The notes beneath the pieces are model-generated. The model was not told the DNA's origin, searched no databases, and saw nothing but the letters and a program-made list of their open reading frames with translations. 64,000 bases of DNA from an uncultured Gammaproteobacteria bacterium (lineage in GTDB: Bacteria; Patescibacteriota; Patescibacteriia; UBA1558; 2-01-FULL-52-15): contig CAYOCJ010000001.1 of assembly GCA_964402565.1 (NCBI GenBank), forward strand, positions 96,079 through 160,078. The letters run 5' to 3'. The position numbers and the translations under genes were made by a program. This document shows, piece by piece, positions 13,880-64,000 of the stretch. Positions within the stretch are counted from its first letter, which is position 1. Each line of letters starts with the position of its first letter.

Positions 13880-13880
13880 A

Positions 13881-22016: not shown

Positions 22017-22030
22017 TCGTATCCTGAGGG

Positions 22031-23242: not shown

Positions 23243-23244
23243 TG

Positions 23245-32756: not shown

Positions 32757-32831
32757 ATATACCACAGAAAGTGCATTATGTAAATATCTAATGCGTTGAT
32801 TTTTATCATATGCTTTGTTAGAGTAAGGCCT

Positions 32832-45300: not shown

Positions 45301-48300
45301 GAATGCTACCGCGATATGCGGAAGCAATGTCGCATACCCGGCTGAGGTGTGGTGGAAGAACCCGCTCTTCAAGAAAGCAAAGAGTTATTTCTATCTGAAC
45401 AATGAAGAAGTAGATACCCAGAGCTGCAATGGCCAGGTGGGCAAGAAAGACGGCTGCCTGCTCTTCCTCGATATGAGCAAGCGCGATGTGAAGAGCTATG
45501 ATGCATTCTCGACCTATGACAAGAGCGCCGGCAATGGAGGAGGACTGGTGCAGCCGGTTACCTGCGTCGCAGGATCTACGACATGCAGTAATGACAGCAA
45601 TACGATCGTGAAGGTTCGCAGGGATCGCCAATGCGCAGAGTGGCTTGCCTGCAGATCTGCGACTGAGGTCTTCGATTCAGCGAACAATTCTTTCAGGCAG
45701 ATCTGCGATCAGGTCGGCACGTGCAATGAGTATAAGCCTGGCAGCGACATCATGAATTGTGCGAACTGGGTTGCGCCTTCGAAACAGAGATTGGAATATG
45801 GCTACTATGTGAATAGGTCGATCGATTTCGATGCGGCTGATTATTCCGGCTATTCTATCTATAATGACTATCAAGTGGGCACCTTGTCCTTGGTTGACGT
45901 CAGTACTCTTGGATCTCCGCCGACCGGACCTGATGGCAGAAACCCGGATTACCGCTTGGTACGCGTCATTGATACCTGTGATAGTTCGCAGCCGCCATAT
46001 GAATCGCCATGCGGCCCTGTCGATCCGTTGAATCCGGGAGAAAAACTTGGACGATGTTTTGCTACGAATAAGTGCGTTGTGGGCATTGACGGCAGCCGAT
46101 TCAGCAGAGATTCGGATTTCGTGATCAAGCGCTCGACCCGGGCATGGGCTGAGAAAGATTCTCCATTCCCGTATTCGGTCGTCGATAAAGACCAGGGCGA
46201 TACGCGCAAAGTGAAATTTGGATTCCAGGATGCGACCATTTGCGATACGAAGAATGCATCGTGCGAAGACCGGTACTATAAGTTCCAGTACGGATCCACC
46301 AACAGCGTTACTAAATACTTTTCAGCCGACGTGCAGCTGTCAGGGGGCGCCATCCCTGCATGCGTTTGCCAGGGCGGCGAATATGATAACCGCGAGTGCG
46401 GTACCAAGGATACTGGCGGCGCTTTGGTCTGTTCGAATAATATAACAAGGCATTGTACGGTAGACACTGATTGTCCGAGCGTTGTCGTCGCAGGTGTGCC
46501 GACCACTGGCGCATGTAAGGACGGTCCGGACGGCAAAATGTCTCCTGAAGAGCGCTGTCCAGACAATGGCTCGCCGCTGTATCTGCGAAAGTCAGACAGC
46601 TTCCTGAACTGGCCTGGTTTCTGCCTTGAACCTGATAATCGCGCCAACATCAACGGATCACAGACTGAACGCGCCTGTCTCAACTGGCTGCCAGTCGATA
46701 ATGCACCGGTCGGTTATGACTTTTTCAACCAAAATAGAGAAGCAGGGTATTCATATAAAGCACCCGCCTACTACTGTCTGGATGTAGGATTGTATGAGTT
46801 GCGCGTCAACCACTATTTCGGATGCAAGTGCGATTACCAGTGTAATAATAGCCTGAACCCCGATCCGACCGCGTATGCTATCAGACAAGGCGCGCAATGT
46901 GGATGCAAGTTCAATCCATTAGATCCAAATCCTCACACAAACTGTATTCTTGGATTTAATTTCGGTTTGCTGGGCTGCGGTTGGAGGCATCCTTTCGATA
47001 AAAAGAAAGATTGTTATGCAGTGCCGATACCGAATGGACCAGGATTGTATAGCTACAATAACAACACGATTGCCGGCTGGGAAAATCCGCCTGATCCGTC
47101 ATGCAGAGTATTAGCTCAGACGGTTGATGAGCGCGGTGAGAACGCTGCCATGACGAACCTATTCTGGTCAAACTATAACGGCGGCTCTGGATACGCCATC
47201 GGCGATATACCGATTGGAACGAGTACTGCGAAACTTGGGTATAAACTTGATAAGGATGATAAGCCTTTCGGCTCAGCTGTGCCGAATGGCCTTGGCTTCG
47301 TAACTGATAAGCTGCAGATACAAAAGCCGGGTACTATCCCGAGAGCAGGCAGTCCCTATGCTTGCTCCAGCAGCGTGCAGTCATGCAGTTATTTCGATCC
47401 GGCGAACTTGTCTTCGTTCGCGGTACAAGGCTGGACAACGCCGTATGTGGGCTGGGGCAATGAACCATATACGATCGGCGTCAGGCGCCTGAAAGAGATC
47501 TATAGAAAGATATTCAATCTCTATACCTGGCAGGAAGGAAATCTATGCGAGGATATGGTCTGCGGCCGCCCGAATGACCCGGATAGCCCGAACGTAAGCG
47601 AGAACGGAGGCTATTATGGCGGCCAGCCATGCAGCGCAGGAGACACTAATTCCTGCAATGAAAGCGCCGGAGCCACCTCCTGCGTTCATATTCAGGATAA
47701 ATGCGTAAACTCAGTATTCAATGACACTGATCCCGCTTCTGAACTGTATCAGGGCTGCGGCGTCTGTACGCGCGTCGGGTTTATCAGTGAATCAGCGCCA
47801 CAGAAGAGATGCATGAGCAATTGGGGCGACACGAATGGTGATAATGTGAACGATACAAGCGGACTCTTTGCAACTGCCGCTGCCTGCAATGCTGCTGATC
47901 TTGATCCTGGCGCTGCGACCGTGACCTGTTCTATCGCCTATCCGGCAGGCGGTTGCGCCCCTGACCCGAATGATCCGAGCGGCAGATTCCGCTGTTTCAG
48001 CGAGCCATTCGCAGGAAATGATTGCAAGATCCCGTTGAACCCGAATTATCTAAGTTGCGAAGGCACTCCGGCAACCTGCCATTATGGCTCAGGCGCTACC
48101 AAGGAAGACACCGGCGTCCCTTGCAATGGGGTAAGCGATTGTACCGGCACCATCACCTCAGATCCAGATTCACTGCAAGGCCTGCTCGATAATATTAATT
48201 CACAATCCTATTGCGCAGACATTAACCATAAAGAAGGAAGTTACGACTACGAAGCTGGCGATTTCTGCGTCGGCGAGCCATTCTCAGTTCGCATACAATC

Positions 48301-49408
48301 GACGAATCCGGAGCCATATATTTTCAGCGGGACGCCGGTTCATTGCGAGGTCGGCACGACGTATACGAATGCGCTTGGATACACCTTGCAAGGATATGGG
48401 CCGACCGCCGGGAACGAAGCTGACAATATTTGTACGAGCCATGGCCGGTGTATACCATCCTATCAGGTAAAGTATGCGCCGCCACCGGTAAGCACCGGCA
48501 AGGTCATGTGTGAACGGCAGCCGGATAAGGGTTATTTACCGCTCTGCAACCCGGATGTGGAGGATTGTACTGGTAAGAAGCCAGACCAGATCGTCGAGGC
48601 CCCTGCCTTGCCATTGGATCTGACGCCGTCATCGAGTTTGAATGGACTGACCTCGGTGCCAGGCTATGCGCCGTATATTATTCCGGCAAAATGTGATGAC
48701 ACCGGCACGAAGTGCAAGCAGTCCACCCCGATCTATCAATTCCATGTACCGAATGGCCCGCTTGGAGCCCCGAATGACAATGGCTTTAGCGTCAATAATG
48801 TTCTTGGCAGTGAACCGTCGCCGCTCAATGTGGTGACTGGTTTCCAGAATATGCTCGCGTCATTGAAGTTTTACATGGCAGCAGATAAGAACCATATTCC
48901 GATCAGATATGTTGATCTTGACTGGGGCGATGGGCTGTCCCAGACGCGCGTCGGCTACTATAAGAATCATCTCGAACAATGTGATCCGGCAACATTCGGA
49001 CCGCTCACGCCGCCTGCGCCTCAGACATCGCTTGATTATGCAGGTTCAGACCAGGCATGCCGCATCGCATTCAGGAATTATTTGCACGTCTATGCCTATG
49101 ATATCGCCTATACGTGCGGCCGATGTGATAATAATGCAGCTCGCTCATGCGGACGCGATGATGACTGTGCTACCGGCGGCAAATGTACGACGCGAGGCAT
49201 CGATGGAGCTGTGTCATGCTACAGGCCGCGCGTTATGGTCCAGGATAACTGGGGCTGGTGTACCAATGGCGTGTATGGAACGACCGGGGTAGGCTGTAAA
49301 GACACGCAGGTGGTCAATAGTGGCCAGCCGCCATCACCTCAAAGCGATGCGGACGGGTATGTCCAGTTCAAAGGATTGATCATGGTCTACAAGGATCCCA
49401 AGCCATAA
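39383..49408 (+). CDS. giant secreted cysteine-rich protein (3341 aa)
   Basis: Uninterrupted 10,026-nt ORF. The N-terminal signal peptide is LTFLLSIVLASTLFFAGSARPVQAAG. Hundreds of Cys residues occur in CxxxxC and GSC contexts, with no TM helix beyond the signal peptide. It is translationally coupled to both neighbours. Confidence 0.6.
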   Translation: MDRRPKIILTFLLSIVLASTLFFAGSARPVQAAGVITFSPTEFMQTIKEWITKLKEIGWKKAAITALDKVSSNFINKIAQDAGNYLATGGKGQSGLQRRESFGAILRKDGEAALGDFVQDLSSETALDKLGLNLCNPTAQLKANVSLQLLDAGNPVPLGKSGCNIRDIQQNWRNFAEANTNGSGLTANVSYGNTLGINGSSITGPGLVAGSCQGTTQGSCGFENPIASSLPDTGVCDVTTSSSQNQFVSCKQTADCIAAGLLGATCRQIAQLCSSDAECTDGSKCLKAGGSSGSCYSDADCPGDTKCVGASGANSGVPYLQVTSNFSAEEKLKFLTDLETSQSDLTFASAIQAKADELKAAKEKVATMDATACGNYKDVGSKITDDYIHKNCAEIEGLKAKTDAPSSQDEVAQLKSEGENAFWLNAAKIFGRSLISGLLKKYIRAGSFSLAEVGQRTDVNAVRENIIQQLRGGVTSPLNALNVVNNVAEAKKPSLDKVDNYDYLSLFTQCPDDRNLVELDNCTLDDNFASAIRDKKTLAEALADGVIRGDLPLISNLNTSLNSDPFCVRNGYCHSNIVRLRKYRIIPIGWEIAASLSPIDAPVTLQQVVDCFENGGACKFDAASNVYYHLIDPNWVLKAPETICKAEGFGPKLISTETAERQQYCADGISCLAEDDAGNCVGGYGYCTKENNIWRFNGEQCPAQFASCTVFTSTEDHKSVSYLGNSVDTCDASQNGCKWYSKSQDNVGTESNPNLVWNPNDRIYFNKTVAKCDADQVGCTEFVSLLTPGVNLITNGDFDYFTPSSTTNLADPNWMNDNLVDKFDGWQGSADTYTTRDNAYFGSDGLSAKNGGRVSTNAITGILADKTFTLSWFAKSGTANNCVTDVAISSATTAAQSTPVTYTKDWKRFELTKTFDVNTLDTSVNISFSTACDDVPVATADEIYIDGVKFELNSRSSGFTQYAENGKVYLKSGSRCTKDDVGCDLYTATESGFKVPGKIDSDDRCPAECVGYQSYLELPSQFDVLEKIPLPAPAPRPVDFIAKTAAACPATEVNCEEFTNEEEVAQGGEGKHYFSFVRQCVEDALGSTYYTLEGSDTAGYQVRTWRLLASDLPSGQPCTNVDIGAKNCIDASSTPATCTAADMATDLNCREFFDISGIPHYIQQDHVIASSADCQAFRRTSTGTTFYALGKDSRACSAQNNNCREYRGNQSNNLRTLFTDYFEQGNTGEWNTTNASLSTEAVSTGGHSIVNKNASDVLTTTLTRNATNKTYKIEAGREMYMEFWMKNINPVQVVFHADSTYSFPTTTMAVPNDWQQYRVGPVYIGNAIDAAPSLTIIPFGGNPLAPVYFDNIILRESLSNVFIIKDSWKTPASCDQPIPGAMLGCQEYTNKAGTAYDLRSFSKLCSNEVIGCQAFINTQNSTNPFQKIYNANDKSEVIVPEDNISYLVYSEQNRCYSQSKGCSALGAPQLNLDLPEDHPKYIDGYKVLTLINNPDTYDTTLCTDAGLFCEEYTDSKAQTVYFKNPHDRICEYKDNINISGRIQSGWFQKKSLEPGQTPVGCSDDGVLPIEDKDFRIYKNVDYDYTGWAGECSAQYDLCTEFKDPLDTQGDNAVTNADFGLVDASGQPLNWKDHIWSWPYSSTPPASWLQASPGQQIAISRLQPYGSISFGQDFSNVDGTDVFAYSVDVNVQRMTHGLNPQIGVNLSCHFDSPRDIDFCSTSIRTTTESCTSTTDCKAGGACSAGFCQYPNGNYNYTKPCGPNNSCAAGTMCYTFSWSACEGPGPDGNFNNRNDDDYTNMQCAGATGTDDTACVNRFGAGYRCLSWPYKKDLDRDYVLDYTTYLSNPYLYDKWQNVRRVVDLGADSGQRKVYECTLWLNLSNWYGYNQQSRNDYNNPGTGAPPGPRACAPVSTYDYEMSCGDTYCTIPGPDGIPGNADDTATTVRCTTSTSTVAPTVANGDAGCRLPVGSGGTGNATAICGSNVAYPAEVWWKNPLFKKAKSYFYLNNEEVDTQSCNGQVGKKDGCLLFLDMSKRDVKSYDAFSTYDKSAGNGGGLVQPVTCVAGSTTCSNDSNTIVKVRRDRQCAEWLACRSATEVFDSANNSFRQICDQVGTCNEYKPGSDIMNCANWVAPSKQRLEYGYYVNRSIDFDAADYSGYSIYNDYQVGTLSLVDVSTLGSPPTGPDGRNPDYRLVRVIDTCDSSQPPYESPCGPVDPLNPGEKLGRCFATNKCVVGIDGSRFSRDSDFVIKRSTRAWAEKDSPFPYSVVDKDQGDTRKVKFGFQDATICDTKNASCEDRYYKFQYGSTNSVTKYFSADVQLSGGAIPACVCQGGEYDNRECGTKDTGGALVCSNNITRHCTVDTDCPSVVVAGVPTTGACKDGPDGKMSPEERCPDNGSPLYLRKSDSFLNWPGFCLEPDNRANINGSQTERACLNWLPVDNAPVGYDFFNQNREAGYSYKAPAYYCLDVGLYELRVNHYFGCKCDYQCNNSLNPDPTAYAIRQGAQCGCKFNPLDPNPHTNCILGFNFGLLGCGWRHPFDKKKDCYAVPIPNGPGLYSYNNNTIAGWENPPDPSCRVLAQTVDERGENAAMTNLFWSNYNGGSGYAIGDIPIGTSTAKLGYKLDKDDKPFGSAVPNGLGFVTDKLQIQKPGTIPRAGSPYACSSSVQSCSYFDPANLSSFAVQGWTTPYVGWGNEPYTIGVRRLKEIYRKIFNLYTWQEGNLCEDMVCGRPNDPDSPNVSENGGYYGGQPCSAGDTNSCNESAGATSCVHIQDKCVNSVFNDTDPASELYQGCGVCTRVGFISESAPQKRCMSNWGDTNGDNVNDTSGLFATAAACNAADLDPGAATVTCSIAYPAGGCAPDPNDPSGRFRCFSEPFAGNDCKIPLNPNYLSCEGTPATCHYGSGATKEDTGVPCNGVSDCTGTITSDPDSLQGLLDNINSQSYCADINHKEGSYDYEAGDFCVGEPFSVRIQSTNPEPYIFSGTPVHCEVGTTYTNALGYTLQGYGPTAGNEADNICTSHGRCIPSYQVKYAPPPVSTGKVMCERQPDKGYLPLCNPDVEDCTGKKPDQIVEAPALPLDLTPSSSLNGLTSVPGYAPYIIPAKCDDTGTKCKQSTPIYQFHVPNGPLGAPNDNGFSVNNVLGSEPSPLNVVTGFQNMLASLKFYMAADKNHIPIRYVDLDWGDGLSQTRVGYYKNHLEQCDPATFGPLTPPAPQTSLDYAGSDQACRIAFRNYLHVYAYDIAYTCGRCDNNAARSCGRDDDCATGGKCTTRGIDGAVSCYRPRVMVQDNWGWCTNGVYGTTGVGCKDTQVVNSGQPPSPQSDADGYVQFKGLIMVYKDPKP

Positions 49409-49411: not shown

Positions 49412-51940
49412 ATGATGCGGCTAAAAAACACAAAAAAAGTATTGCTTGCTCTGAGCGCTGTCGCGATCGTTTCGATCGGGATCTCGTTCGCACATCCGGT
49501 ATATGCACAAGAATGGGTGGCAAAAACATTCGGCCCTATTTTGCTGAATGTGGTCTTCTTTCCGTTCATTACGCTCCTCAACAAACTGACCTTCGCCTTG
49601 GTAGAGGTTGCAAAGTATAATACATTTGCCGATGCGCCCATCGTCGATAAAGGGTGGCCGATCATACGGAATATCAGCAATATGTTTTTCGTGCTGATAC
49701 TCCTGATCATTGCGATCGGTACGATCGTGAAATGGGAAAAGGTGAATTATCGGCAGAATTTGCGTCGGCTCATTATCATGGCCTTGCTCATAAACTTCAG
49801 CAAGACCATTGTCGTATTTTTCATTGATGTTTCACAGATTTTCACCCTGACCTTCATCACGGAGGTGAACAAGGTGCTGCAAGTAGGCATCATCACCGCA
49901 CTTGGACTTGATAAAATTGCAAATCCGGTCACACAGGGCGCACTTCAGACAACGGAACAAGCTAGTATAAATCTATTTACCTATATTATGGCTGGGGCCA
50001 TGGTCGCAGTCGCCTGCCTTGCGGTCGCGGTCATACTGCTTATTTTCCTGGTTCGCATCTTAGCATTATGGATGCTTATTATTTTCGCGCCGCTCGCGTT
50101 CATTTCAAGCGCATTGCCTCAGACGCGGGAATGGTATGACAGATGGTGGAAGCAATTAGGATCTAATGTAACATCAGCGCCGGTTTTGGCCTTTATGCTA
50201 TGGCTTGTTTTTGCTGTGATCGCAGATAATAGCGGCAAAGTTCCCGAGATCGTAGCACAAGGCGGCACTGGCAGCGGCGTTGATGCAAGCGATATTATTG
50301 GATTTGCGGTCGGCATCGGTTTGCTGATCTACTCGATCCGGATGGCTGTATCTATGGGTGCAGCCGGCGGATCTCTCGCATCGAAGCTCCAGAGCAGAGT
50401 TACCGGAGTTGCGAAATCCGTCGGTAACCGAGTTGCCTGGGGCAAGAGCGGACAGGGAGGAGCCTTGGGCCGTGCGAAAAGCGTTGGCCTTCGCGTGGGC
50501 GGTGCTACGGCTGCTGGCGCTGCTTTTTTGAGAGTGCCGCTGGCCGGCAGGCTTGCTGAGAGCGCCACGATCGCCCACACCAAGCAAATGAATGCACGCG
50601 ACGCGGCTGAGGAGGAGCGTCGCAAGTATATGACCCGGCCGCAGCGCGAAGCTCAACTTGAAAGATCCATCGGCCCTCGTTTCATCGCAGATGCGCTTGA
50701 GAAACGAGGCGGCATCCTAGGCAGAGTTGGCGGCGCATTGAAGACTGCATCTGCACCGCAACGTCGGGCTGCGATTATGGAAAGGGCCAAGCGAGGGCAC
50801 TATACTGAGAAAGATGAAACTGATCAGTTCATTGTTTCTGAAAAAGAGGCCAGCCTTGATAGACAGCATTTAGTTGCATCTGGCGCAAGCGAGAAGCAGC
50901 TCGAAGAGTATGATAAGAGCGTCGGCTTGCGCGGCTTAAATGCACAACGAAATGCGCAAGGTGACTTTGTAGACAAGTTCGAGGGTGAGCGCCATCAGCG
51001 CTTGATGAAAGAGATGTTCGATGAAGGTAAACTTAATAACGATATTAAAGCGCGAGACACAGACTATGCCTCTAAGCTGATCGGCAAACAAACAGAGAAT
51101 AAGATCGTTGAGTTTACTGAAAATGTACAAGGAGCTGCGAAAGATAGGATCGTTGATAACCTCGTAGCGCAATTACGAACAGTGAACGCTAATATTGCCG
51201 CCGCAGGCCCAGGCCGCGCATCAGCTGATGATCTGAAAAATAAAAAGAAACTCGATAATGCAATTTCACGGATCGACTATAAGAGAGCTATGGCCTCGGG
51301 TTTCATTGATATGAACACCATAGCGAATAAGATCGAAGATGATAAGCTCAACGATTTCTATGACGAAGTGAGTCGCGTTGATGCATCAACGGGCAAGGCA
51401 GATCAGACGCATGAGCTGAGCACGTCCAATATGAGCAGGATCTTAACCTCATCGAAGGTGCTTGATAATCAGAAAGAGACCCTCATGGATAATATGATGA
51501 AACTCGCGAATGATCCATCCGACGCGATCCGCCAGGCAGCTGCTCAGAAGAAGTTCAATGAATTACGCAAGGGAACTTCGACAGCTAAGATCGTGACCGA
51601 GCATGTAGATACCCGTTTAGCAGTGCCTACGCCGAACCCTGATGTTGTTGCATGGCAAACGTGGGAAGATAGCCATGATCAAGCGCAGGCGAAGAAATTA
51701 TCGACCAAGCAATTGACCGAAGCAAAAGGCCGCATGGATAAGTTTAAACCTGATCAAAATGTCAGGCACTTTGATAAGAACGGCAAGCTTCAGGAGAACT
51801 GGTCATACGAGAGTTTTGATCCTATATCTGGTATGATAAAAATCCGCATGGACAAAAAAGATAAAAGCGGCAAGATCATTGCCAAAGGCACGCCGATCGA
51901 AGTGCCGCTGGCAGAATTTACACAGAGGAATTACGTTTAA
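49412..51940 (+). CDS. VirB6/TrbL-like polytopic membrane protein with a Gly-rich linker and a charged coiled C-terminal half
   Basis: Signal-like N-terminus, at least 6 TM helices in the first ~300 aa, a Gly/Ala-rich segment GAAGGSLASKLQ...VGGATAAGAAF, then a ~500-aa hydrophilic K/E/D-rich region. It starts 3 nt after the giant-gene stop. Confidence 0.4.
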   Translation: MMRLKNTKKVLLALSAVAIVSIGISFAHPVYAQEWVAKTFGPILLNVVFFPFITLLNKLTFALVEVAKYNTFADAPIVDKGWPIIRNISNMFFVLILLIIAIGTIVKWEKVNYRQNLRRLIIMALLINFSKTIVVFFIDVSQIFTLTFITEVNKVLQVGIITALGLDKIANPVTQGALQTTEQASINLFTYIMAGAMVAVACLAVAVILLIFLVRILALWMLIIFAPLAFISSALPQTREWYDRWWKQLGSNVTSAPVLAFMLWLVFAVIADNSGKVPEIVAQGGTGSGVDASDIIGFAVGIGLLIYSIRMAVSMGAAGGSLASKLQSRVTGVAKSVGNRVAWGKSGQGGALGRAKSVGLRVGGATAAGAAFLRVPLAGRLAESATIAHTKQMNARDAAEEERRKYMTRPQREAQLERSIGPRFIADALEKRGGILGRVGGALKTASAPQRRAAIMERAKRGHYTEKDETDQFIVSEKEASLDRQHLVASGASEKQLEEYDKSVGLRGLNAQRNAQGDFVDKFEGERHQRLMKEMFDEGKLNNDIKARDTDYASKLIGKQTENKIVEFTENVQGAAKDRIVDNLVAQLRTVNANIAAAGPGRASADDLKNKKKLDNAISRIDYKRAMASGFIDMNTIANKIEDDKLNDFYDEVSRVDASTGKADQTHELSTSNMSRILTSSKVLDNQKETLMDNMMKLANDPSDAIRQAAAQKKFNELRKGTSTAKIVTEHVDTRLAVPTPNPDVVAWQTWEDSHDQAQAKKLSTKQLTEAKGRMDKFKPDQNVRHFDKNGKLQENWSYESFDPISGMIKIRMDKKDKSGKIIAKGTPIEVPLAEFTQRNYV

Positions 51941-51963: not shown

Positions 51964-53241
51964 ATGCTCTATTCGTCGATCTCAGATTTACCGCTTGAAG
52001 TGCAGGAAGTGCTCATGAGCGAAGATGATGCTCAGAAGAACGAGCAGTTGAATGCTGATTTTCGATTATACAGGGGACAGTTCGTATTTCTCCTGGATTT
52101 GATAGTCGGTACGATCCTGGGAAAGTTCGAAGTGCTTGATCTGCCGACTCGGATTGCAAAAATGCCGGATGCAGACCGTGTTGATGTCCGTGCATTATCA
52201 TTGCGCATTGCACTCGATAAACTCTGGCCATTGCAGGATTTTCTGAAAAAAGTAGATGTGCTTATCAACCGGCTCGGCGGGCGAGTGCCCGCGAGGATCC
52301 CCTTGCCGTCTCCGGAGGCAGTATCCGAGGCAGAAGAGGCTGCTGAATCTGAATCACCAGAGATCGTCCAAGGTGCTGCGAAAGATATTCTCGTTCACTA
52401 TAAAGCGTTTTCAGATCTGTATCTGACGCAAAAACCTATCCGCGACAGTGAAGACAGACTGAAGGCACCGACTCTGAACAACTGGCTTCAGGATTATTTG
52501 CATACGGTCGGCGCAGAAGGGACCGGCAGCTTGAAACGGAGCAAGTACCTGAGCAAGAGCGCGAACGCATTGGCATTGAATGGCCCTGAGAAGCAAAATG
52601 TACTGAATTTTCTGATGTCCTATGAAGAGCAAATGCCGATGTATTGGCAGGTTGCGGAAACGCAATTCCTATTGATCGACAGCGAGATGCCCCAGGAACA
52701 GAAAACAGCGGTCCAGCAGAAGAAATCAACAGAGCAAATGTCAGAATTGGTGGCGCGATATCGAGCAGTGCAAGAAAAGTACTCTGCTATTTTTGCGGAT
52801 AAGAAGAATGGGCTGGAGCTCGAGATCAACGGCAATACGGGAAAAATTGCTGACATCGTTTGGGACGCTTTAGGCCTCGGCGATACGGACAGATGTTTAG
52901 CGGCGATCGATCTGCTCATCGATCATCATTGGCTCCTGGAGACATTAAAAACAGATCATCGGTTCCAGGGGATTGTCGGCCGCAGCATCGGTGTGCGGTA
53001 CGGCGTGGAAGCAAAAAACACCTGGAATGGGGATTTGACTTCGTCAGTAATGCTTGCAACATTCTGGAAATTAGTATTGGTCGAGAAATTAGGCATCGAT
53101 GAAACAACCGCTGCCATTCTCGCTGATCTGTATAGAAAAAAAATGGATCAAAAAATAAGCCCCATGTATCTGGATCTGAAGTCAGGCGCATTTCAGTTCA
53201 GAGAGATCGCCTATAAAGACAGAGTTTTGAATTTTGCATAA
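51964..53241 (+). CDS. hypothetical cytoplasmic protein, last gene of the giant-protein operon
   Basis: 425-aa ORF 23 nt downstream. No motif recognised. Confidence 0.4.
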   Translation: MLYSSISDLPLEVQEVLMSEDDAQKNEQLNADFRLYRGQFVFLLDLIVGTILGKFEVLDLPTRIAKMPDADRVDVRALSLRIALDKLWPLQDFLKKVDVLINRLGGRVPARIPLPSPEAVSEAEEAAESESPEIVQGAAKDILVHYKAFSDLYLTQKPIRDSEDRLKAPTLNNWLQDYLHTVGAEGTGSLKRSKYLSKSANALALNGPEKQNVLNFLMSYEEQMPMYWQVAETQFLLIDSEMPQEQKTAVQQKKSTEQMSELVARYRAVQEKYSAIFADKKNGLELEINGNTGKIADIVWDALGLGDTDRCLAAIDLLIDHHWLLETLKTDHRFQGIVGRSIGVRYGVEAKNTWNGDLTSSVMLATFWKLVLVEKLGIDETTAAILADLYRKKMDQKISPMYLDLKSGAFQFREIAYKDRVLNFA

Positions 53242-53885: not shown

Positions 53886-53905
53886 AGGATGGCGTTACGA
53901 ATTGG

Positions 53906-54136: not shown

Positions 54137-54144
54137 ACTGTTGC

Positions 54145-54594: not shown

Positions 54595-54604
54595 AGGATT
54601 GATA

Positions 54605-55093: not shown

Positions 55094-55375
55094 GAACACC
55101 TTACATTATTAATAATTAAGTAAGGACCCGTAGGACAAGGCCTATGGGTATGGTTGATTACGATGCCCGCAGTGTCGCGCCTGCTCGCAGGCTGGCACGG
55201 AGGGTCATTTAGGATAATCCCGCAAAGCAGGACTATCCTCGTAACGAGCCGGCTGTAAGGCCAGGCTCATACATGATCTGTTAACTATGTAAAAGAAAAC
55301 GTATCGGCGATTACCGTATCATAGAAGCCTCTCTTTGTCAATGATTCTGTGCTATACTATAGGCTATACATTCGT

Positions 55376-56581: not shown

Positions 56582-56678
56582 TTGTTTGTCGATCAGGCCT
56601 TACTATGGTATACTATTTATCGTATATACTTATAGTATCATCGTAGGTTAGCTAAATTCGTGAACATAGTTTGCAAGG

Positions 56679-58058
56679 ATGGAAGAAAATAAAAATCAAA
56701 CGATATCTGCTGCACCGGATGACATTGTCGTCAAAGATCTTGACGGCAATTTTAAGGTTTTGAGTGACGGGGAGCTGAAAGATCTGGATGATCTCCTGTC
56801 ATCGACTCAAAGTGCCGCTACCATACCTCAGATCTCGAGCGTAAATCCGCCGCATGGAGGCGCCTTGGATTTTCCGAAATTCACCGACCTGGCGGCCGTC
56901 CCCGTAAATGAGCATTTTGAGGACCCTGCTGTTGCAAAAAAAGGCACTACGATCGCTGAGCACCAATTTCATCCAGACGACCAGGATGAAGTAGAGCGGG
57001 AGCTTGAGAAACTGAACACCGTTTTCGGATTGTCTCAGCAAAAGCAGTACAGCATCGTTAAGATCGCCCAAAAACTTGTCGATAAGCACGGATTGAAATT
57101 ATCTGAGAAGGATTTCATGACCTTCCAGAAGATCGTTTTGTCATATTTCAGGCAAGCGCGCAGTTCGGTAGAAACCAGGGCAATGTTTACCATGACCGTT
57201 GAAAGCGGCGGCGTAGGGATCAATTCCGATACGGCAGATCATATGATCGCGGTATTGAAACATCTTAAGTTAAAGATCGAAGAAACAGACGGCATTGTAG
57301 TAGAAGTAGATGACGCAATGCCGAGCATGGCGCAACCAGCTCCTGCTCCGCAGAACATGCCTGAGCCGAAACCAAGGCCAATGCCTCAGCCAGAGATGAA
57401 GCCGGCAATGGCCCCGATCCAGACCGCTACCCCTCCTGCACAGCCACTGAAGACTGTTGCTCCTATTGCAGCTGCGCCGATCCAGGAGAAAAAACCTGAG
57501 CCTATCATGCCGCCTGCGACCCCGATGAGCCCGCCGCAACCTACACCAGCAGGAATGCCTGAAGTTAAACCCGCACAGAATCCAGCCCCGGCAATACAGC
57601 CGATACCGGAAGCGCCGCAACCAGCCGTCGTCGCAGAAGAAATGCCAAAGATGAATCGACCGCAGATCCCTTCGTTCAAGCCTCCGATCGTCGAAATAAA
57701 GCGCCCGCAGTCCAATGCGGTCCGTTCAGGCAAACCAACCGGACGCGTCGAAGAATTGGCGCTCATGGACCTGGCGACATGGCGCATGCTTGACCCAGAT
57801 CCGCGCATTCGCGCAGGCAAGATCCTTGGCAAAATCCAGAACCTTGAGCAAGAATCGCTGACCAGGAAAAGCCAGGGCATCCAGGCATGGCGTTCGAATG
57901 AGGTCTATCAATATTACCTGATGATCGGGCAGATGAGCCTGGAGCATAAAAAAGAAGTGGCCGAGATCATTCAATCAATGATGCAGGAGGGACAGCAGAC
58001 GCTGACCTTGGATGAATTTGAAGCGGTCTCTGATCTGAACAGAATGTTACGCTACTAG
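56679..58058 (+). CDS. hypothetical protein with a central Pro-rich linker, first gene of the T4SS-like operon
   Basis: 459 aa. A ~110-aa P/A/Q-rich low-complexity region separates two globular parts. It ends 1 nt before the next gene. Confidence 0.4.
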   Translation: MEENKNQTISAAPDDIVVKDLDGNFKVLSDGELKDLDDLLSSTQSAATIPQISSVNPPHGGALDFPKFTDLAAVPVNEHFEDPAVAKKGTTIAEHQFHPDDQDEVERELEKLNTVFGLSQQKQYSIVKIAQKLVDKHGLKLSEKDFMTFQKIVLSYFRQARSSVETRAMFTMTVESGGVGINSDTADHMIAVLKHLKLKIEETDGIVVEVDDAMPSMAQPAPAPQNMPEPKPRPMPQPEMKPAMAPIQTATPPAQPLKTVAPIAAAPIQEKKPEPIMPPATPMSPPQPTPAGMPEVKPAQNPAPAIQPIPEAPQPAVVAEEMPKMNRPQIPSFKPPIVEIKRPQSNAVRSGKPTGRVEELALMDLATWRMLDPDPRIRAGKILGKIQNLEQESLTRKSQGIQAWRSNEVYQYYLMIGQMSLEHKKEVAEIIQSMMQEGQQTLTLDEFEAVSDLNRMLRY

Positions 58059-58059
58059 T

Positions 58060-58524
58060 ATGCAGAAATTTATCGTTCCGCAATTCATCGATGTAGAAAG
58101 CAAGATCTTAGGACCGATCACGGTCCGGCAGTTCGCGACGGTGGCCGTTGGCATGATCTTCATGTTCGCAGCGTATAAGCTTGCAGATTTTTCGCTGTTC
58201 CTGGTCTGGACCGTGGTCATTCTCGGAGCAACATTGCTGTTCGCTTTTTTTAAATTCAACGGCTTGCCGTTCCACATTTTCATGCTGAACATGATCTCTA
58301 CCTATAAGCGGCCCATGCTCCGCGTATGGCTGAAAGAGGAGTATAGAGGCTCGAGAGATGCAAAGAGCAAGGCAGCGAAAGGGAAAGAAGAAAAGTATCT
58401 GGTCCCGAAGAAGGAATTTTCATCTGAGAAATTGTCTGAATTAGCCTTGATCATCGATACCGGCGGCATCTATAAGGGTGAAGCTGAAGCAAACCGCATC
58501 AATAGATCAATGTACGTAAAATAG
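58060..58524 (+). CDS. PrgI/VirB3-like small membrane protein
   Basis: MQKFIVPQFIDVESKILGPITVRQFATVAVG followed by two TM helices. Its position is immediately upstream of VirB4. Confidence 0.45.
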   Translation: MQKFIVPQFIDVESKILGPITVRQFATVAVGMIFMFAAYKLADFSLFLVWTVVILGATLLFAFFKFNGLPFHIFMLNMISTYKRPMLRVWLKEEYRGSRDAKSKAAKGKEEKYLVPKKEFSSEKLSELALIIDTGGIYKGEAEANRINRSMYVK

Positions 58525-58531
58525 AACTCCG

Positions 58532-59212
58532 ATGAAGAGCAAGAAATTACAAGGCAATAAACCGAAGATCTCAACACAGCGTTTTTTGGATATTGCTGAG
58601 ATCCGTGACGATATGGTGGTCATGAAGGACGGCACGGTGCGCGCGGTGCTCATGGTGTCTTCGGTGAACTTCGATCTGAAGTCTGAAGAGGAGCAGAATG
58701 CTATGGTCGGATCCTATGTTCAGTTCTTAAATTCATTGCAGTTCCCGCTGCAGATCGTCGTACAGTCCAGGCCGCTCAATATTGACGAGTATATCCAGCG
58801 TCTGATCGTGACAGAGCGTGAGCATTCGAATGAGCTGCTGCGCATGCAGACGGCAGATTATCGCAATTTCGTCGACGATCTCGTGCATCTCGAGAAGATC
58901 ATGAGCAAGAAGTTCTTTATCGTCGTGCCCTATGCTCCCGGACAGGACAATAAATTGAAATTCACTGACCGCTTTATGGGTTTGTTCTCGACTGCTAAAG
59001 CAGTGACCCTGAGCCGCAAGAAATTCGAGAACTATGCGCGCGAATTGAATAAACGGTCCCTTTTCATATATTCAGGTACGACCAGTATGGGCCTGACCTC
59101 ACGCCGTTTGAATACGCAGGCGCTGATCGAGCTGTACTACAATAGTTATAATCCGGCATTGTCCCAGAACGAGCAGCTCGCAGATATTAATCAATTATCG
59201 ATCGACGAATAA
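58532..59212 (+). CDS. VirB4/TrbE-family ATPase, N-terminal domain (separate ORF)
   Basis: FLDIAEIRDDMVVMKDGTVRAVLMVSSVNFDLKSEEEQNAMVGSYVQFLNSL matches the CagE/TrbE/VirB4 N-terminal region. It ends in TAA overlapping the next ATG (TAATG) in a different frame. Confidence 0.55.
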   Translation: MKSKKLQGNKPKISTQRFLDIAEIRDDMVVMKDGTVRAVLMVSSVNFDLKSEEEQNAMVGSYVQFLNSLQFPLQIVVQSRPLNIDEYIQRLIVTEREHSNELLRMQTADYRNFVDDLVHLEKIMSKKFFIVVPYAPGQDNKLKFTDRFMGLFSTAKAVTLSRKKFENYARELNKRSLFIYSGTTSMGLTSRRLNTQALIELYYNSYNPALSQNEQLADINQLSIDE

Positions 59213-61131
59213 TGTTCAAGCCAAACGAAGCTATAGCAACCAAAAAGCAGGACGACCAGCCGATTCTGTCGTTTGAAGAGCAGAAGGCGATCGGGCAAGA
59301 CAGGGCAGAGACAGAAGCGGAATTGTTGCTCGCTGAAAAGGCCTTTCGAGAAGGCGTTGTTTCGATTACGGATATCATAGCGCCGGCCGCTTTCAAGGTG
59401 GACTCGAGTTTTATACGCTTAGGCGATCAATTTGTCCGTACGCTATTCGTTGTGGCATACCCCCGCTACATTACGATCGGCTGGTTCGCGCCGATCATCA
59501 ACTTTAGTTTGGCACTCGATATTGCCATGTTCTTCTATCCGGTCGACAGCGCCATCATTTTGAAAAAATTGCGCAACAAGGTCGGTGCCATCGAAGCACA
59601 GATCTCATCCGATCTTGAGAAAGGCGCTCCGCGCGATCCGGTCCAGGAAACAGCCTTGCGTGACATTGAATCCTTGCGCGACTCTTTGAGTCAGGGCACT
59701 GAACGCTTCTTCAAATTTGCTCTCTATATAACGCTCTATTGCAAGTCGAAAGAAGAGCTGGATACAAATACGGATAAGATCGAAAGCACGTTGGGAGCAT
59801 ACCTGGTTCTCTCACGGCGCGCTCTGTGGCAGGCTGAGCAGGGATTTAATTCTACGCTGCCTTTGGGTAATGATGAGATCGCGATCGCGAATAATATGTC
59901 GTCATCGCCTGCGGCGGCTTCATTTCCATTCATATCATCCGAACTCACGTCGGATAATGGCATCATGTACGGCATCAATCGCCATAATAATAGCCTGATC
60001 ATTTTTGATCGTTTTAGTTTGCAGAACGCGAACTCGGTTGTGTTCGCGACATCCGGCGCAGGCAAAAGTTATACCATCAAATTGGAAGTGCTTCGCAGCA
60101 TGATGTTGAATACTGATGTTATTTGCATAGATCCTGAGAAAGAGTATCTGCATTTATCCGATGCGGTAGGCGGAACCTACGTGAACCTGTCGCTCAACTC
60201 AGAAAGTAAATTGAATCCATTCGATTTGCCTACAAATTTAGGCGACAGCAAACCTGAGGATGTTCTCAGAAGCGCTGTCATTACTTTGAAGGGTTTGATC
60301 CGGCTCATGGTCGGGGAGTTGACCCATGATGAAGACTCGATCGTCGACCGCGCATTGCTCGAAACGTATGCAAAGAAAGACATCAGCTCGACGAGCGACT
60401 GGTCGAAAGCGGAAATGCCTCTGATGGCTGACTTTGAGCAGATTCTTGCCGGCATGATCGGCGGAGAAGATCTGGCATTGCGTGTCAAAAAATTCACTCA
60501 AGGAACGTTTTCTGGATTGTTCAACAGCAGGACGAATGTCGACATCAATAACCAGCTTGTCGTCTTCAGTGTTCGAGACCTGGAAGACGAATTGAGGCCT
60601 ATAGCCATCTATACCATCGTCAACTATATCTGGAATGTAGTCCGCTCGCATGTGAAGAAACGCATTCTCGTTATCGACGAAGCGTGGTGGCTGATGCAGC
60701 ATGAAGATTCAGCGAAATTTATTTATGCGTTGGTGAAGCGCTGCAGAAAATACTATCTCGGGGTGACGACTATCACCCAGGATGTGAACGACTTCCTGCG
60801 CTCGCCCTATGGCCAGGCCATCGTTACCAATTCGAGCATGCAGATCCTACTGAAGCAATCGCCGGCATCAGTGGCGCTCATTCAGAAAACATTCATTTTG
60901 ACCGAGGGTGAGAAATATTTGTTGCTGGAATCAGGAGTGGGCGAAGGCATTTTCTTTGCCGGCAACAAACATGCAGCTATCAAGGTGCTTGCCTCATATA
61001 CCGAAGACCAGATCATCACGTCAGATCCGAAGCAGCTCCTGCAGATCGAAGAATCAAAGAAGGAGTTTAAGCAGGCAATGCAATTGCAGCAGGCAGGCAG
61101 CGAGCCTGAGCCGGCACCAGCTAAAACATAA
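59212..61131 (+). CDS. VirB4/TrbE-family conjugative ATPase, C-terminal ATPase portion
   Basis: VVFATSGAGKSYTIKLE is Walker A. KRILVIDEAWWLM is Walker B. The N-terminal segment DIIAPAAFKVDSSFIRLGDQFVRTLFVVAYP is typical of VirB4. Confidence 0.7.
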   Translation: MFKPNEAIATKKQDDQPILSFEEQKAIGQDRAETEAELLLAEKAFREGVVSITDIIAPAAFKVDSSFIRLGDQFVRTLFVVAYPRYITIGWFAPIINFSLALDIAMFFYPVDSAIILKKLRNKVGAIEAQISSDLEKGAPRDPVQETALRDIESLRDSLSQGTERFFKFALYITLYCKSKEELDTNTDKIESTLGAYLVLSRRALWQAEQGFNSTLPLGNDEIAIANNMSSSPAAASFPFISSELTSDNGIMYGINRHNNSLIIFDRFSLQNANSVVFATSGAGKSYTIKLEVLRSMMLNTDVICIDPEKEYLHLSDAVGGTYVNLSLNSESKLNPFDLPTNLGDSKPEDVLRSAVITLKGLIRLMVGELTHDEDSIVDRALLETYAKKDISSTSDWSKAEMPLMADFEQILAGMIGGEDLALRVKKFTQGTFSGLFNSRTNVDINNQLVVFSVRDLEDELRPIAIYTIVNYIWNVVRSHVKKRILVIDEAWWLMQHEDSAKFIYALVKRCRKYYLGVTTITQDVNDFLRSPYGQAIVTNSSMQILLKQSPASVALIQKTFILTEGEKYLLLESGVGEGIFFAGNKHAAIKVLASYTEDQIITSDPKQLLQIEESKKEFKQAMQLQQAGSEPEPAPAKT

Positions 61132-61136
61132 CGACT

Positions 61137-61727
61137 ATGCAACAAGGACAAGGCAAATACAATAAAAATAGATTGCTCGCGCTCGGCGTGCTGATACTTC
61201 TGATCATCATTATTTTGTTGCTCATCTGGTGGTGGTTTATACCGCATGGCAACGGTATTCCGGGACCAAAACCGACAGCGACAGAGCCTGCTCACGATAC
61301 GGTCGTATTGCCGATACAAAAACCAGCCCCAGCGCCTGCTCCGGAGCCAACGCCTGCTGTAGTGCCAGGGGAAACTGAAGTTCGCTCGCTTGCGCGCAAT
61401 TTCACCGAACGGTACGGCAGCTGGTCTACCGACAGCAATTTCCAGAATTTGAAGGATCTATTCCCGCGTGTCACTGCGCGATTGAAAGCCTCGTTCCAGA
61501 GAACCATTGACTCATCATCAGCTCCGACTGAGTTCAAGAGCGCCGAGACGAGAGTGTTGCAGATCGATATCAAATCGCTTACCGACTCGAAAGCAGATGT
61601 CTTGGTCACTGCTCAGCAAACGACGCGCAATGACAAGCTTGAGTCGCAGGACAGCTTTGTGAAGCTCGCATTAACCATGGTGAAAGATGGACAGTTTTGG
61701 TACGTAGATAGTGCCGAGTGGAAATAA
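61137..61727 (+). CDS. membrane-anchored protein with Pro-rich linker and ~120-aa globular domain (VirB8-like by position)
   Basis: One N-terminal TM helix LLALGVLILLIIIILLLIWWWFI, a PAPAPAPEP linker, and a C-terminal domain ending FWYVDSAEWK. The VirB8 call rests on position and topology only. Confidence 0.3.
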   Translation: MQQGQGKYNKNRLLALGVLILLIIIILLLIWWWFIPHGNGIPGPKPTATEPAHDTVVLPIQKPAPAPAPEPTPAVVPGETEVRSLARNFTERYGSWSTDSNFQNLKDLFPRVTARLKASFQRTIDSSSAPTEFKSAETRVLQIDIKSLTDSKADVLVTAQQTTRNDKLESQDSFVKLALTMVKDGQFWYVDSAEWK

Positions 61728-61742
61728 CAACGATCAGCATTT

Positions 61743-62288
61743 ATGGCAGAAGCAGCACAGACTTTACCCCAATATGATGTCGTTGAGCGAGACATTGAAG
61801 AAGCTCAGCGAGCTCGTGAATTGCGGATGCAACGGCTCAGGACAGGTACATTTCGAGCAGAGCAGGGGCGGCAGAACGCATTCGGAGGTGCAGCTCAGGC
61901 TGCGCAGCATCTGCAGCAGATCAAAAAAAGCATCAGGAATATACGGAATATTACCACTGCGCTTGGTGCTGTGGCTTCGTTCACTGTGATCGGAATCTTA
62001 TGGACATTGTTACAATGGAATCTACAAATGGTTTGGCAGGTATTTCATCTTCCTGGCCATGATTACTTCGGACTCTCCTGGTGGCTGATACCGATCGTCT
62101 TGTTAGCCGATGTTCTTATTTTTATTCTTTACATCACCCTCACACTTATTGCTTATTTTTACGCGCATCCCGGGAGTGCTGCCTGTGCTGTTCCTGAACT
62201 TGCAAAAACCTTCAGCAGCAGCGGCATGTTCGGCTTCATCAAGTCATTAGGCTTATCAATCGTAGAGTGGACATGCACAGTGCTTTGA
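61743..62288 (+). CDS. hypothetical 3-4 TM membrane protein
   Basis: 181 aa with a charged N-terminal ~75 aa, then hydrophobic helices. Confidence 0.35.
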   Translation: MAEAAQTLPQYDVVERDIEEAQRARELRMQRLRTGTFRAEQGRQNAFGGAAQAAQHLQQIKKSIRNIRNITTALGAVASFTVIGILWTLLQWNLQMVWQVFHLPGHDYFGLSWWLIPIVLLADVLIFILYITLTLIAYFYAHPGSAACAVPELAKTFSSSGMFGFIKSLGLSIVEWTCTVL

Positions 62289-62292
62289 TCAT

Positions 62293-63525
62293 ATGGATAG
62301 AAAAAGAATAGCTTTGATCGTTTTATTCGTAGTCTCCATTGCTATATTTGGCTGGGGTTTGTATTCGTTTTTTTTCAAAGGCATCATTCCCGGCAATGAA
62401 ACGAATGGGAATGCCAATACCGTAGGCGTATTGCCGATACCGGGGCAAGGAGGACCCGGCCATGCGAATGAAAATCAAAACCAGCCCATACAGCTGCCTG
62501 GTTTTTCGACGACCATCGATGTTACAGCACCGACAGACATTGCCCAAGGCGGCTATACGAAGGTCGTTGATTATGGTGATACGAAAGTGGACGATTTTAC
62601 CTCGGGAGCCGAGGGGGCCTATTTCTATAATAAAGACGCCGGGCTTTTCTTTAAAGTGGACGGCGGCAAAAGCACCCCGCTCTCGGATAAGAAATTTTTT
62701 GACGTTGATAAAGTGACGTGGTCCAAGGATCAGAACAAGGCTATCATGGAATACCCTGATGGTTCGAATGTCGTGTATGATTTTAAGACCGATAAGCAAG
62801 TGACCTTGCCGAAAGAACTGACCGATTTTTCGTTCTCGCCCCAGGGCGACGCTATCGCCGGGAAATGGATGGGCAAAACGAATGACGAGAATTGGCTCAT
62901 GGTCGGCGATGCGAATGGCGGAAATTTCCAGCTTATCGAACCATTAGGCGATCGCGGGAACAATGTCCAAGTAGATTTTTCGAACAATAATCAGATCGTG
63001 GCACTGGTGAGAGACCCGGTCGATGCGAATACCCAGAGCGTCTTGCCCATCGGATTGAATGGCGAGAATTTTCCTGCGTTCAATGTCGAGGGTTTAAAGT
63101 TCGAGAGCAAATGGGCGCCGACGGATAATGCTCTTCTCTATAATGTTTCCACGCAGGACAATAACTATAATCCAAAACTATTGATCACGAGCGGCGACGC
63201 AGAGACATTAGGCACGAGTCATTTGGACCTGGAATTGAATACCTGGGCCAATAAGTGCACCTTCAACGCATCATCAACATCGATATACTGTGCAGAGCCG
63301 ACCAGTTTGCCGCGCGGTTCCGGGTTGTATCCGGAGCTCGCGAAAGGCATACCGGATGTTTTTTATCGTATCGATCTCCGCAGCGGCCAGAAGATCCCCT
63401 TAGCGGTACCGGTGGGCAACCGTTCGTCGTATAGCGCCTCGTCTGTCTTTTTATCCCAAGATGAATCATCGTTGTATTTCGTTGATGAAGTGACGAATCA
63501 GCTGCATTCGATACGTTTACGATGA
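62293..63525 (+). CDS. membrane-anchored protein with a probable beta-propeller (TolB-like) ectodomain
   Basis: N-terminal TM helix. Repeated motifs of the FSFSPQGDAIAG and VDFSNNNQIVALV kind. Confidence 0.4.
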   Translation: MDRKRIALIVLFVVSIAIFGWGLYSFFFKGIIPGNETNGNANTVGVLPIPGQGGPGHANENQNQPIQLPGFSTTIDVTAPTDIAQGGYTKVVDYGDTKVDDFTSGAEGAYFYNKDAGLFFKVDGGKSTPLSDKKFFDVDKVTWSKDQNKAIMEYPDGSNVVYDFKTDKQVTLPKELTDFSFSPQGDAIAGKWMGKTNDENWLMVGDANGGNFQLIEPLGDRGNNVQVDFSNNNQIVALVRDPVDANTQSVLPIGLNGENFPAFNVEGLKFESKWAPTDNALLYNVSTQDNNYNPKLLITSGDAETLGTSHLDLELNTWANKCTFNASSTSIYCAEPTSLPRGSGLYPELAKGIPDVFYRIDLRSGQKIPLAVPVGNRSSYSASSVFLSQDESSLYFVDEVTNQLHSIRLR

Positions 63526-64000
63526 TGAAGAGGTTCTTTGTTGCAGTCCTGATATGCAGTGTCCTGGCGATCGCAGCTATTGTCGGTATCAACATTTTGG
63601 AACAGCCATCAGCCGATAAGCAGCCGGCACAGCAACAACCAGCATTGACCGCAAATGACACTGATCCGTCGCAAGGCCCTCGCGATGCCAAAGTGACGGT
63701 GATGCAATTCGGCTCTTTCAATTGCCCGGCCTGTAAGACAGCAGCTACCCAGATGGACCAGCTCAGGGCTCTGTTTCCAGAGCAGGTAAGGATCGTGTGG
63801 AAAGACCTGCCTGAAGAAACCGGATTTCCGTATCAGGCCGCTATCGCAGCACGCTGTGCGCAGCAACAGGGGAAATTCTGGCAATACCACGACCTCTTAT
63901 ATGAAAAACAGGATCTCATAGCTTCTCGAGCGCTGTATACGGTCTGGGCGAAGGATCTTGGAATACTGACAGAGCGCTTCGATACATGTCTTGATAAAGA
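63522..64000 (+). CDS. DsbA-like thiol-disulfide oxidoreductase, 3' partial
   Basis: Translated by hand. MMKRFFVAVLICSVLAIAA is signal or anchor, then VTVMQFGSFNCPACKTAATQ carries the CPAC active site. The ORF runs off the window and overlaps the upstream stop (ATGA). Confidence 0.55.
   Translation, partial: MMKRFFVAVLICSVLAIAAIVGINILEQPSADKQPAQQQPALTANDTDPSQGPRDAKVTVMQFGSFNCPACKTAATQMDQLRALFPEQVRIVWKDLPEETGFPYQAAIAARCAQQQGKFWQYHDLLYEKQDLIASRALYTVWAKDLGILTERFDTCLDK

Follow-up and report, generated by a model that had tools for sequence, protein, structure and literature searches.

The type IV secretion systems (T4SS) of Patescibacteria are built around a VirB4 clade of their own, which is related to MPF_FATA (Quinonero-Coronel et al. 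2025, PMC12102498). In the sections of that survey used here, TrsD is given as the commonest associated component, PrgI/VirB3, VirB6 and VirB2-like pilins are found nearby, VirB8 homologues are rare and occur almost only in class ABY1, and comF, recG and radA adjoin the ABY1 loci. Relaxases are nearly absent (109 in 103 genomes) and the genes of type IV coupling proteins (T4CP) lie mostly far from virB4 (same sections). For Southlakia epibionticum, transposon insertion sequencing (Tn-seq) found the T4SS and its pilin array essential for epibiotic growth and comEC dispensable; the function of the T4SS was called 'completely unknown', and effector delivery or uptake from the host was speculated (PMC11665869, PMC12857230). 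A cultivated member was reported to form tubular structures toward its host, possibly T4SS pili, and to take up host RNA, by a mechanism left unresolved there (bioRxiv 10.64898/2026.06.21.733656). Here, a gene block at the 3' end of a 64,000-nt stretch of contig CAYOCJ010000001.1 (hereafter the window, that is, the whole stretch analysed) was compared with these systems. The locus is almost certainly the core of a Patescibacteria-clade, MPF_FATA-related T4SS in a genome of Komeilibacteria (class ABY1). It belongs to a kind already described and adds no new system type.

This assignment is made because the products match PrgI, TrsD and VirB4 profiles, a VirB8 fold and, weakly, TrbL/VirB6, and because a pilin gene is present. 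The block comprises eight co-directional open reading frames (ORFs) on the + strand, running from 56679 to beyond 64000, with spacings in gene order of 1, 7, -1, 5, 15, 4 and -4 nt. The original prediction had described eight genes which overlap or are at most 15 nt apart, forming a Gram-positive-type T4SS-like machinery of an ultra-small bacterium with PrgI, VirB4 and a VirB8-like protein. The ORF coordinates and the profile and structure evidence given below agree with this description. The features of the block are as follows (TM, transmembrane):

56586..56614, + strand, promoter-like site, TTGTCG-17-TATACT with extended TG; match to a sigma-70-like consensus only
56679..58058, + strand, g1, conserved soluble protein without TM segment; conserved position, unannotated family
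58060..58524, + strand, PrgI/VirB3-like protein with two TM segments (PF12666)
58532..59212, + strand, TrsD/TraD-like protein, homologue of the VirB4 N-terminal part (NF041427, VirB4 profiles)
59212..61131, + strand, VirB4 ATPase core, MPF_FATA-like, CD1110 family (NF045971, PF19044, 4ag5)
61137..61727, + strand, VirB8-like bitopic protein with N-terminal TM helix, Pro-rich linker and predicted NTF2-like domain
61743..62288, + strand, small membrane protein with two TM segments (70-92 and 108-143)
62293..63525, + strand, membrane-anchored extracytoplasmic beta-propeller (AlphaFold2 model, invariant Cys pair)
63522..64000, + strand, membrane-anchored DsbA-like thiol:disulfide oxidoreductase, cut at the window end (PF13462)

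The promoter-like site lies in the 97-nt gap upstream of the first gene (56679). Sigma-70-like sites were not enriched in the upstream region over shuffled sequence.

PrgI matched PF12666 above the gathering cut-off (E 7.7e-8, 33.2 bits, cut-off 27; Pfam), in agreement with the PrgI/VirB3-like call made before; its TM segments span residues 20-38 and 40-67. The VirB4 call was likewise upheld by profile searches, namely NF045971 (CD1110 family; E 4e-108, 362.7 bits, cut-off 325) and the TraG P-loop PF19044 (E 2.4e-27). Walker A (SGAGKS) and Walker B (ILVIDEA) are both intact in the translation and, among solved structures (PDB), the ATPase matched 4ag5, the C-terminal domain of a Thermoanaerobacter VirB4 (E 6.4e-40), and TrwK (E 8e-6). 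The gene at 58532 overlaps the VirB4 start by 1 nt. Its product matched NF041427 TrsD (E 4.4e-9; NCBIfam), profile positions 92-238 of NF045975 VirB4_plasma (E 7.4e-11) and profile positions 15-104 of NF045971, in each case below the full-length cut-off; a single-sequence search against the PDB gave nothing useful. Because this product covers the N-terminal part of the profiles and the 59212 product aligns to the VirB4 profile from about position 176 on, VirB4 is encoded as two pieces, a TrsD-like N-terminal piece, which the original prediction had left unnamed, and an ATPase core. VirB4 is also found in two pieces in the Gram-positive T4SS of pGO1 (TrsC-TrsD-TrsE) and pIP501 (TraC-TraD-TraE). 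In contrast to pGO1, pSK41 and pIP501, the present locus is chromosomal and vertically inherited, has no relaxase, T4CP, topoisomerase or oriT context, and contains VirB2-like pilin-domain proteins, which the Gram-positive systems do without (PMC12857230).

For comparison, 80 species-representative loci containing VirB4 were used. The nearest VirB4 homologues in the similarity ranking are all from Patescibacteria (70-100% identity), the named ones coming from Komeilibacteria first and then from other ABY1 and Parcubacteria lineages. Across the 80 species-level genomes, identity is 66-95% for VirB4 and goes down to 22-50% for the other components. The TrsD-like gene adjoins virB4 in all 80 loci, PrgI was found in 74, g1 in 69 (at the same position, always just upstream of PrgI) and the VirB8-like gene in 67, and the order g1-PrgI-TrsD-VirB4-VirB8-like is conserved. 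VirB4 identity together with the conserved synteny therefore indicates vertical inheritance under strong constraint. As a side observation, the metagenome-assembled genomes (MAGs) of the closest relatives have often been deposited as 'uncultured Gammaproteobacteria bacterium' (L001, L004, L006-L008, L010-L012 and others); their VirB4 operons are 71-95% identical to the Komeilibacteria locus, and the titles look mislabelled.

These data bear on whether the block is part of an ordinary or decaying conjugative element, i.e. a remnant of a plasmid or of an integrative conjugative element, with relaxase and VirD4 genes just outside the window. VirB4 most resembles the conjugative ATPases of the CD1110, pGO1 and pCF10 types, and the survey does record relaxases in a minority of Patescibacteria genomes, which would fit such an element. 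In Pfam scans of all large ORFs of the 64-kb window, neither VirD4, relaxase, VirB11 nor integrase was found, and the absence of the first three from the window had been noted correctly. Downstream, 10 kb were scanned with Pfam in a 95%-identical relative (L001), and no relaxase, VirD4, VirB11 or integrase was recognised; one ORF of 239 aa had no match. The order past dsbA in L001 is two PF18895 genes, radA, a DUF559 gene and a convergent recG, plus the one unannotated ORF. The upstream 56 kb are all housekeeping or metabolic. The flanks encode LeuRS, Sua5, KsgA, efp and rpsF-ssb-rpsR, the Pfam content of the window includes LeuRS, Sua5, an MFS transporter, KsgA, Mur ligases, an NAD salvage cluster and MetK, and the sole tRNA, tRNA-Ala(CGC), is at 2025-2098. 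GC is 0.48-0.50 across 48-64 kb, equal to the flanks. All genes are intact, and the VirB4 identity and synteny across 80 species genomes also stand against a mobile element. A conjugative element is very improbable and largely refuted. We regard a non-conjugative role in host interaction as highly probable.

The remaining products of the block were examined by structure and family searches. The 61137 product is bitopic, and in the predicted structure its C-terminal NTF2-like domain is nearest to VirB8 structures; on this model the protein is VirB8-like, as had been proposed. The gene is directly 3' of virB4 in most ABY1 loci sampled. Two further membrane proteins had also been named and are present. 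The 61743 product with its two TM segments had no family match above threshold in Pfam or NCBIfam, and its family was found in 15 of the 80 loci, mostly two genes downstream of VirB4, hence is lineage-restricted. An interpretation of this product as a degenerate VirB2 was rejected (hhalign against the pilin family, probability 0.2%). For the 62293 product, the AlphaFold2 model (mean predicted local distance difference test score, pLDDT, 88.7) has one TM helix (3-27), a disordered linker and an all-beta propeller. Foldseek returned generic propellers only (WD40, tricorn, oligogalacturonate-lyase), homologues bear PD40 (PF07676), and C322 and C333 are invariant across 50 sequences. The DsbA-like oxidoreductase was recognised by PF13462 (E 1.8e-15), PF01323 (E 3.3e-6) and a CPAC motif, as anticipated, and in 27 of the 41 loci which have sufficient downstream sequence, its gene lies with the cluster.

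The first gene of the block, g1, is presumably cytoplasmic because its product has no TM segment. The protein has a conserved helical domain in the middle, a linker rich in Pro and, at its C-terminus, a second conserved domain of about 105 aa; searches of Pfam, NCBIfam and the PDB (profile) were all without match. At E<=1e-3 the family has 1877 cluster representatives, and in the members sampled, long ones included, no known domain is fused to it.

The operon continues beyond the window. A Logan contig (L081; 4.9 kb) which is identical to the window end adds about 700 nt, in which dsbA is completed (211 codons, ending 157 nt beyond the window) and followed after 1 nt by a gene whose N-terminus is homologous to T4SS_pilin (PF18895). 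The operon consequently has at least 9 genes in this genome and runs on into a VirB2-like pilin gene, as L001 also indicates, so that the unit of eight genes must be extended. The statement that no pilin is recognisable holds inside the window (Pfam) and fails beyond its edge; the pilin is missing from the window because the latter ends inside dsbA. L001 has two PF18895 genes directly 3' of dsbA (E 3e-8, above cut-off). In both products the pilin module of about 120 residues (HALTGT...FTNLK) is the same, and the two differ in their signal peptides and Cys-rich C-terminal domains. In related loci, all 26 pilin-family proteins matched PF18895; they contain 8-54 Cys and measure 250-690 aa, far above VirB2 size. 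In several ABY1 lineages the pilin-domain protein encoded after dsbA carries, at its C-terminal end, a domain of the SLT lytic transglycosylase or M15/VanY peptidase type, and so amounts to a VirB2-VirB1-like fusion. The genes concerned are:

L001 14985-15890 and 15904-17016, tandem T4SS_pilin-domain genes
L020 16325-17569, L026 16461-17657 and L027 15288-16298, pilin-hydrolase fusion genes
L067 15144-16463, L016 16465-17811 and L015 16244-17596, pilin-hydrolase fusion genes

The S. epibionticum locus has a six-pilin array plus peptidase/lysozyme genes, whereas the ABY1 relatives have pilin-hydrolase fusions. In Komeilibacteria, the Cys-rich C-termini of the pilin-domain proteins gave no hydrolase match in relaxed Pfam scans; these C-termini contain HxH-type motifs, which we note as a lead only. 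A protein with LysM and Peptidase_M23 domains is encoded at 31365-32909 (- strand), 24 kb upstream of the operon start. M23/LysM domains are among the VirB1-like candidates in Patescibacteria listed in the sections of the survey used here (PMC12102498). Further downstream, radA is co-directional and recG converges on the cluster in 18-20 of the 41 loci.

None of the eight genes is the VirB6 homologue which the original prediction had included in the set. A probable VirB6 gene lies 4.7 kb upstream of the block, as part of a second group of genes:

39383..49408, + strand, giant secreted Cys-rich protein, 3341 aa, directly upstream of the VirB6-like gene
49412..51940, + strand, probable extended VirB6-like polytopic membrane protein, 842 aa (weak TrbL/VirB6 match)
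51964..53241, + strand, conserved partner gene, 425 aa, directly 3' of the VirB6-like gene

In the 49412-51940 product, about seven hydrophobic segments are accompanied by some 500 aa of hydrophilic C-terminal sequence. The product matched profile positions 29-210 of 215 of PF04610 (E 2.7e-4, 21.2 bits, cut-off 25.9) and, weakly, NF046089 (CD3337/EF1877 mobilome membrane family; E 1.8e-3); a profile of the family gave coiled-coil noise only against the PDB. The VirB6-like call is supported because the linkage to the VirB4 operon is conserved, orthologues being found upstream of VirB4 in 29 of 47 loci. In these 29 loci a gene of 200-460 aa is directly 3' of the VirB6-like gene. The partner product of the window has no Pfam or NCBIfam match, and similarity among partner genes is detectable mainly inside Komeilibacteria. 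That g1 and the 425-aa partner gene are paralogues is unproven (a profile comparison gave only a marginal match at the N-terminus, over about 90 aa, with probability 13% and E 0.002); an iterative search with hidden Markov models merged the two families, and the g1 of the window lacks the N-terminal module which they share. The VirB6-like gene and its partner are directly upstream of g1 outside Komeilibacteria, and the VirB6-like gene is contiguous with the VirB4 operon in most related lineages. In Komeilibacteria, the two modules are separated by the genes efp, rpsR, ssb and rpsF, all of them on the - strand, and by a gene with an RMKL-like (UPF0020) methyltransferase domain (53325-56581 in the window).

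The giant protein has a signal-peptide-like N-terminus and 156 Cys (4.7%), and no Pfam domain was found in it. Nine loci have a conserved counterpart of its C-terminus upstream of the VirB6-like gene, and from its sequence the protein is a candidate surface or adhesin component. TSP3_bac calcium-binding repeats were observed in two other proteins (29442-30821 and 38630-39382, both + strand); the gene of the second is directly upstream of the giant 156-Cys gene and may belong to a surface module in common with it.

Taken together, the locus has most in common with the Patescibacteria-clade T4SS (PMC12102498, sections used here; Wang et al. 2023), i.e. a chromosomal MPF_FATA-related virB4 with TrsD-like and PrgI/VirB3 genes adjacent, a probable VirB6 homologue and VirB2-like pilins near, no relaxase, no T4CP near virB4, and an ABY1 context with radA and recG. 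Nothing essential differs. The VirB6 module of Komeilibacteria is set apart from the VirB4 operon by efp, rpsR-ssb-rpsF and the methyltransferase gene, and a VirB8-like gene is present here, which is rare in the survey. Neither DsbA nor thioredoxin is mentioned in the main text of the survey, nor do the sections examined mention the propeller or the giant Cys-rich protein. The description of the set as minimal is too narrow, since the propeller, DsbA, the cytoplasmic g1 and the giant Cys-rich protein are added to it. The 89K system of Streptococcus suis (VirB1, VirB4, VirB6, VirD4) is, like the present one, a reduced T4SS of a monoderm in non-conjugative use, but 89K keeps VirD4 and is located on a pathogenicity island, whereas here no VirD4 is nearby and the locus is a core chromosomal one.

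With these components, the locus most likely provides a pilin-based conduit to the host cell. Based on established T4SS biology, VirB3/PrgI would anchor the TrsD-plus-VirB4 ATPase at the membrane, and ATP hydrolysis by VirB4 would extract the two-helix pilin modules from the membrane, which would be built up, with VirB6 and VirB8 as the platform, into a tube across the envelope. DsbA would oxidise extracytoplasmic Cys in the pilin C-termini, the Cys pair of the propeller and the 156-Cys giant protein. These proteins are plausible clients (8-54 Cys in the pilins, 156 in the giant protein, a Cys pair in the propeller). In related lineages, the hydrolase-tipped pilin-domain proteins would supply VirB1-like cutting of the wall. 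The tube would act as a contact-dependent host conduit that works with neither a relaxase nor a coupling protein encoded at the locus.

The same pilin-SLT/M15 fusions, and the linkage of a giant secreted Cys-rich protein and a propeller to the cluster, would also fit a surface structure only, in which VirB4 assembles pilin-domain hydrolases, propeller and giant protein into an organelle for attachment or wall remodelling through which no substrate passes. Pilin extraction and pilus biogenesis are the best-documented biochemical role of VirB4, which counts for this explanation. Yet the full translocon set (VirB3, VirB4, the probable VirB6, VirB8) is kept under strong constraint, the solved structures matched by the products are subunits or domains of secretion or conjugation machines only, and attachment of Saccharibacteria has been attributed to type IV pili (PMC12857230). 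We consider a purely structural function improbable.

In the mechanism favoured here, the conduit would mainly bring macromolecules from the host into the epibiont, with nucleic acids as the likeliest cargo. Helicobacter pylori ComB and archaeal Ced are VirB4 machines without T4CP or relaxase which import DNA. ComB has been cited as an import precedent (PMC11665869). Import is favoured because no T4CP is encoded near virB4, because radA and recG are conserved neighbours, because ComB and Ced are import precedents lacking a T4CP, because the T4SS is essential in S. epibionticum where comEC is dispensable, and because host RNA uptake has been reported in the 2026 preprint. Import of nucleic acid rather than export is put forward tentatively, as somewhat short of an even chance. 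The present locus shares with ComB and Ced a VirB4-family ATPase without relaxase or coupling protein and is likened to these DNA-uptake machines by its place beside recombination genes. Membership is unsupported, however. Pfam and NCBIfam scans found no equivalents of ComB7, ComB9, ComB10 or CedA/A1/A2, and the best VirB4 match is to the conjugative CD1110 clade. VirB4 matched the NCBIfam CedB family weakly (E 6.7e-18, 64.6 bits, cut-off 700), because VirB4 ancestry is shared.

Transport in the opposite direction was also considered, namely an effector translocator which exports proteins or toxins of the epibiont into or onto the host, with a distant coupling protein or g1 as the receptor. 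Effector delivery by Saccharibacterial T4SSs has been speculated (PMC11665869), T4CP homologues are common in Patescibacteria genomes, albeit far from virB4 (PMC12102498, sections used here), and g1, as a conserved soluble family immediately upstream of PrgI with its many cluster representatives, could be a recruitment factor. On the other hand, no T4CP was found in the 64 kb of the window or the 10 kb downstream in L001, the T4CP homologue of S. epibionticum is non-essential while its other T4SS genes are essential (PMC12102498, same sections), and the cluster contains no gene recognisable as an effector candidate. The giant and pilin-domain proteins bear Sec-type signal peptides and therefore do not need the T4SS for export. 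Effector export appears rather unlikely on balance.

Several points weigh against the host-contact, importing conduit. We know of no Patescibacteria T4SS for which transport direction and cargo have been established. The VirB6 match is below the Pfam threshold, and only four of 28 VirB6-like orthologues matched TrbL, none of them above threshold. The pilin gene of this genome is visible for its first 71 residues only, its C-terminal domain being beyond the contig, and polymerisation into a pilus is not assured because the pilin-domain proteins are far larger than VirB2. The neighbourhood of radA and recG could be plain inherited synteny. A VirD4-like gene may be present elsewhere in the genome; the sections of the survey used here count 5,713 T4CP homologues in 2,918 Patescibacteria genomes, the majority encoded at a distance from virB4 (PMC12102498). 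With these points included, the Patescibacteria T4SS as a host-contact, importing conduit is, as a whole, a probable explanation, and the one we favour.

A bolder joint reading would make the ABY1 T4SS a reverse-running, wall-piercing feeding tube and the main intake of nutrients and DNA. The 'pilins' may then be two-helix modules stacked by VirB4 which carry disulfide-rich or SLT/M15 heads folded by DsbA, and the propeller and the giant Cys-rich protein may also build the tube. Host nucleic acid may be pulled through and passed to RadA/RecG-type enzymes, and the g1 family may replace the coupling protein. As a combination, these proposals are doubtful.

Some further features of the window, away from the T4SS locus, are noted. 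The LeuRS ORF (32796-35837, + strand, 1013 aa) contains a Ham1p_like domain at residues 257-391 (E 1.2e-14, above the gathering score). This non-canonical NTP pyrophosphatase domain separates the catalytic core from the editing domain, an insertion which is unusual for LeuRS. At about 4000-20000, an NAD-related gene cluster encodes an NrtR-type Nudix regulator, a PP2C, a cytidylyltransferase/NAD-kinase-like protein, an ADP-ribosylglycohydrolase, NAPRTase, a PRPP (phosphoribosyl pyrophosphate) synthetase, a glutamine-dependent NAD synthetase and an AAA_28+CYTH protein, together with two ORFs of 600+ aa (5890-7782 and 7829-9643) without Pfam match. GC is 0.55-0.59 at 6-18 kb versus 0.46-0.50 elsewhere, and the cluster may be an acquired island. 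A SAM riboswitch (RF00162, 64.5 bits; 2452-2569, + strand) precedes a short S-adenosylmethionine synthetase gene (2972-3919, + strand, 315 aa). Three genes with Mur-ligase domains are near each other at 20664-25692 (450 aa, + strand; 403 aa, - strand; 815 aa, - strand), and the 815-aa product has an N-terminal extension of about 500 aa without Pfam match.

To our knowledge, no T4SS other than that of Patescibacteria has been found essential for the growth of its own carrier. The present analysis adds to its description the VirB8-like gene after virB4 in most ABY1 loci sampled, the large g1 family, a cluster-linked DsbA with plausible clients, and the pilin-SLT/M15 fusions in related loci. For class ABY1, the parts list now comprises a VirB4 split in two, a VirB8 supported by predicted structure, a probable VirB6 of extended type, pilin-domain proteins, a DsbA dedicated to the system, the propeller, the giant Cys-rich protein and the large unannotated g1 family. 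It can serve as a starting point for structural and genetic studies of the way in which ultra-small epibionts draw on their hosts.

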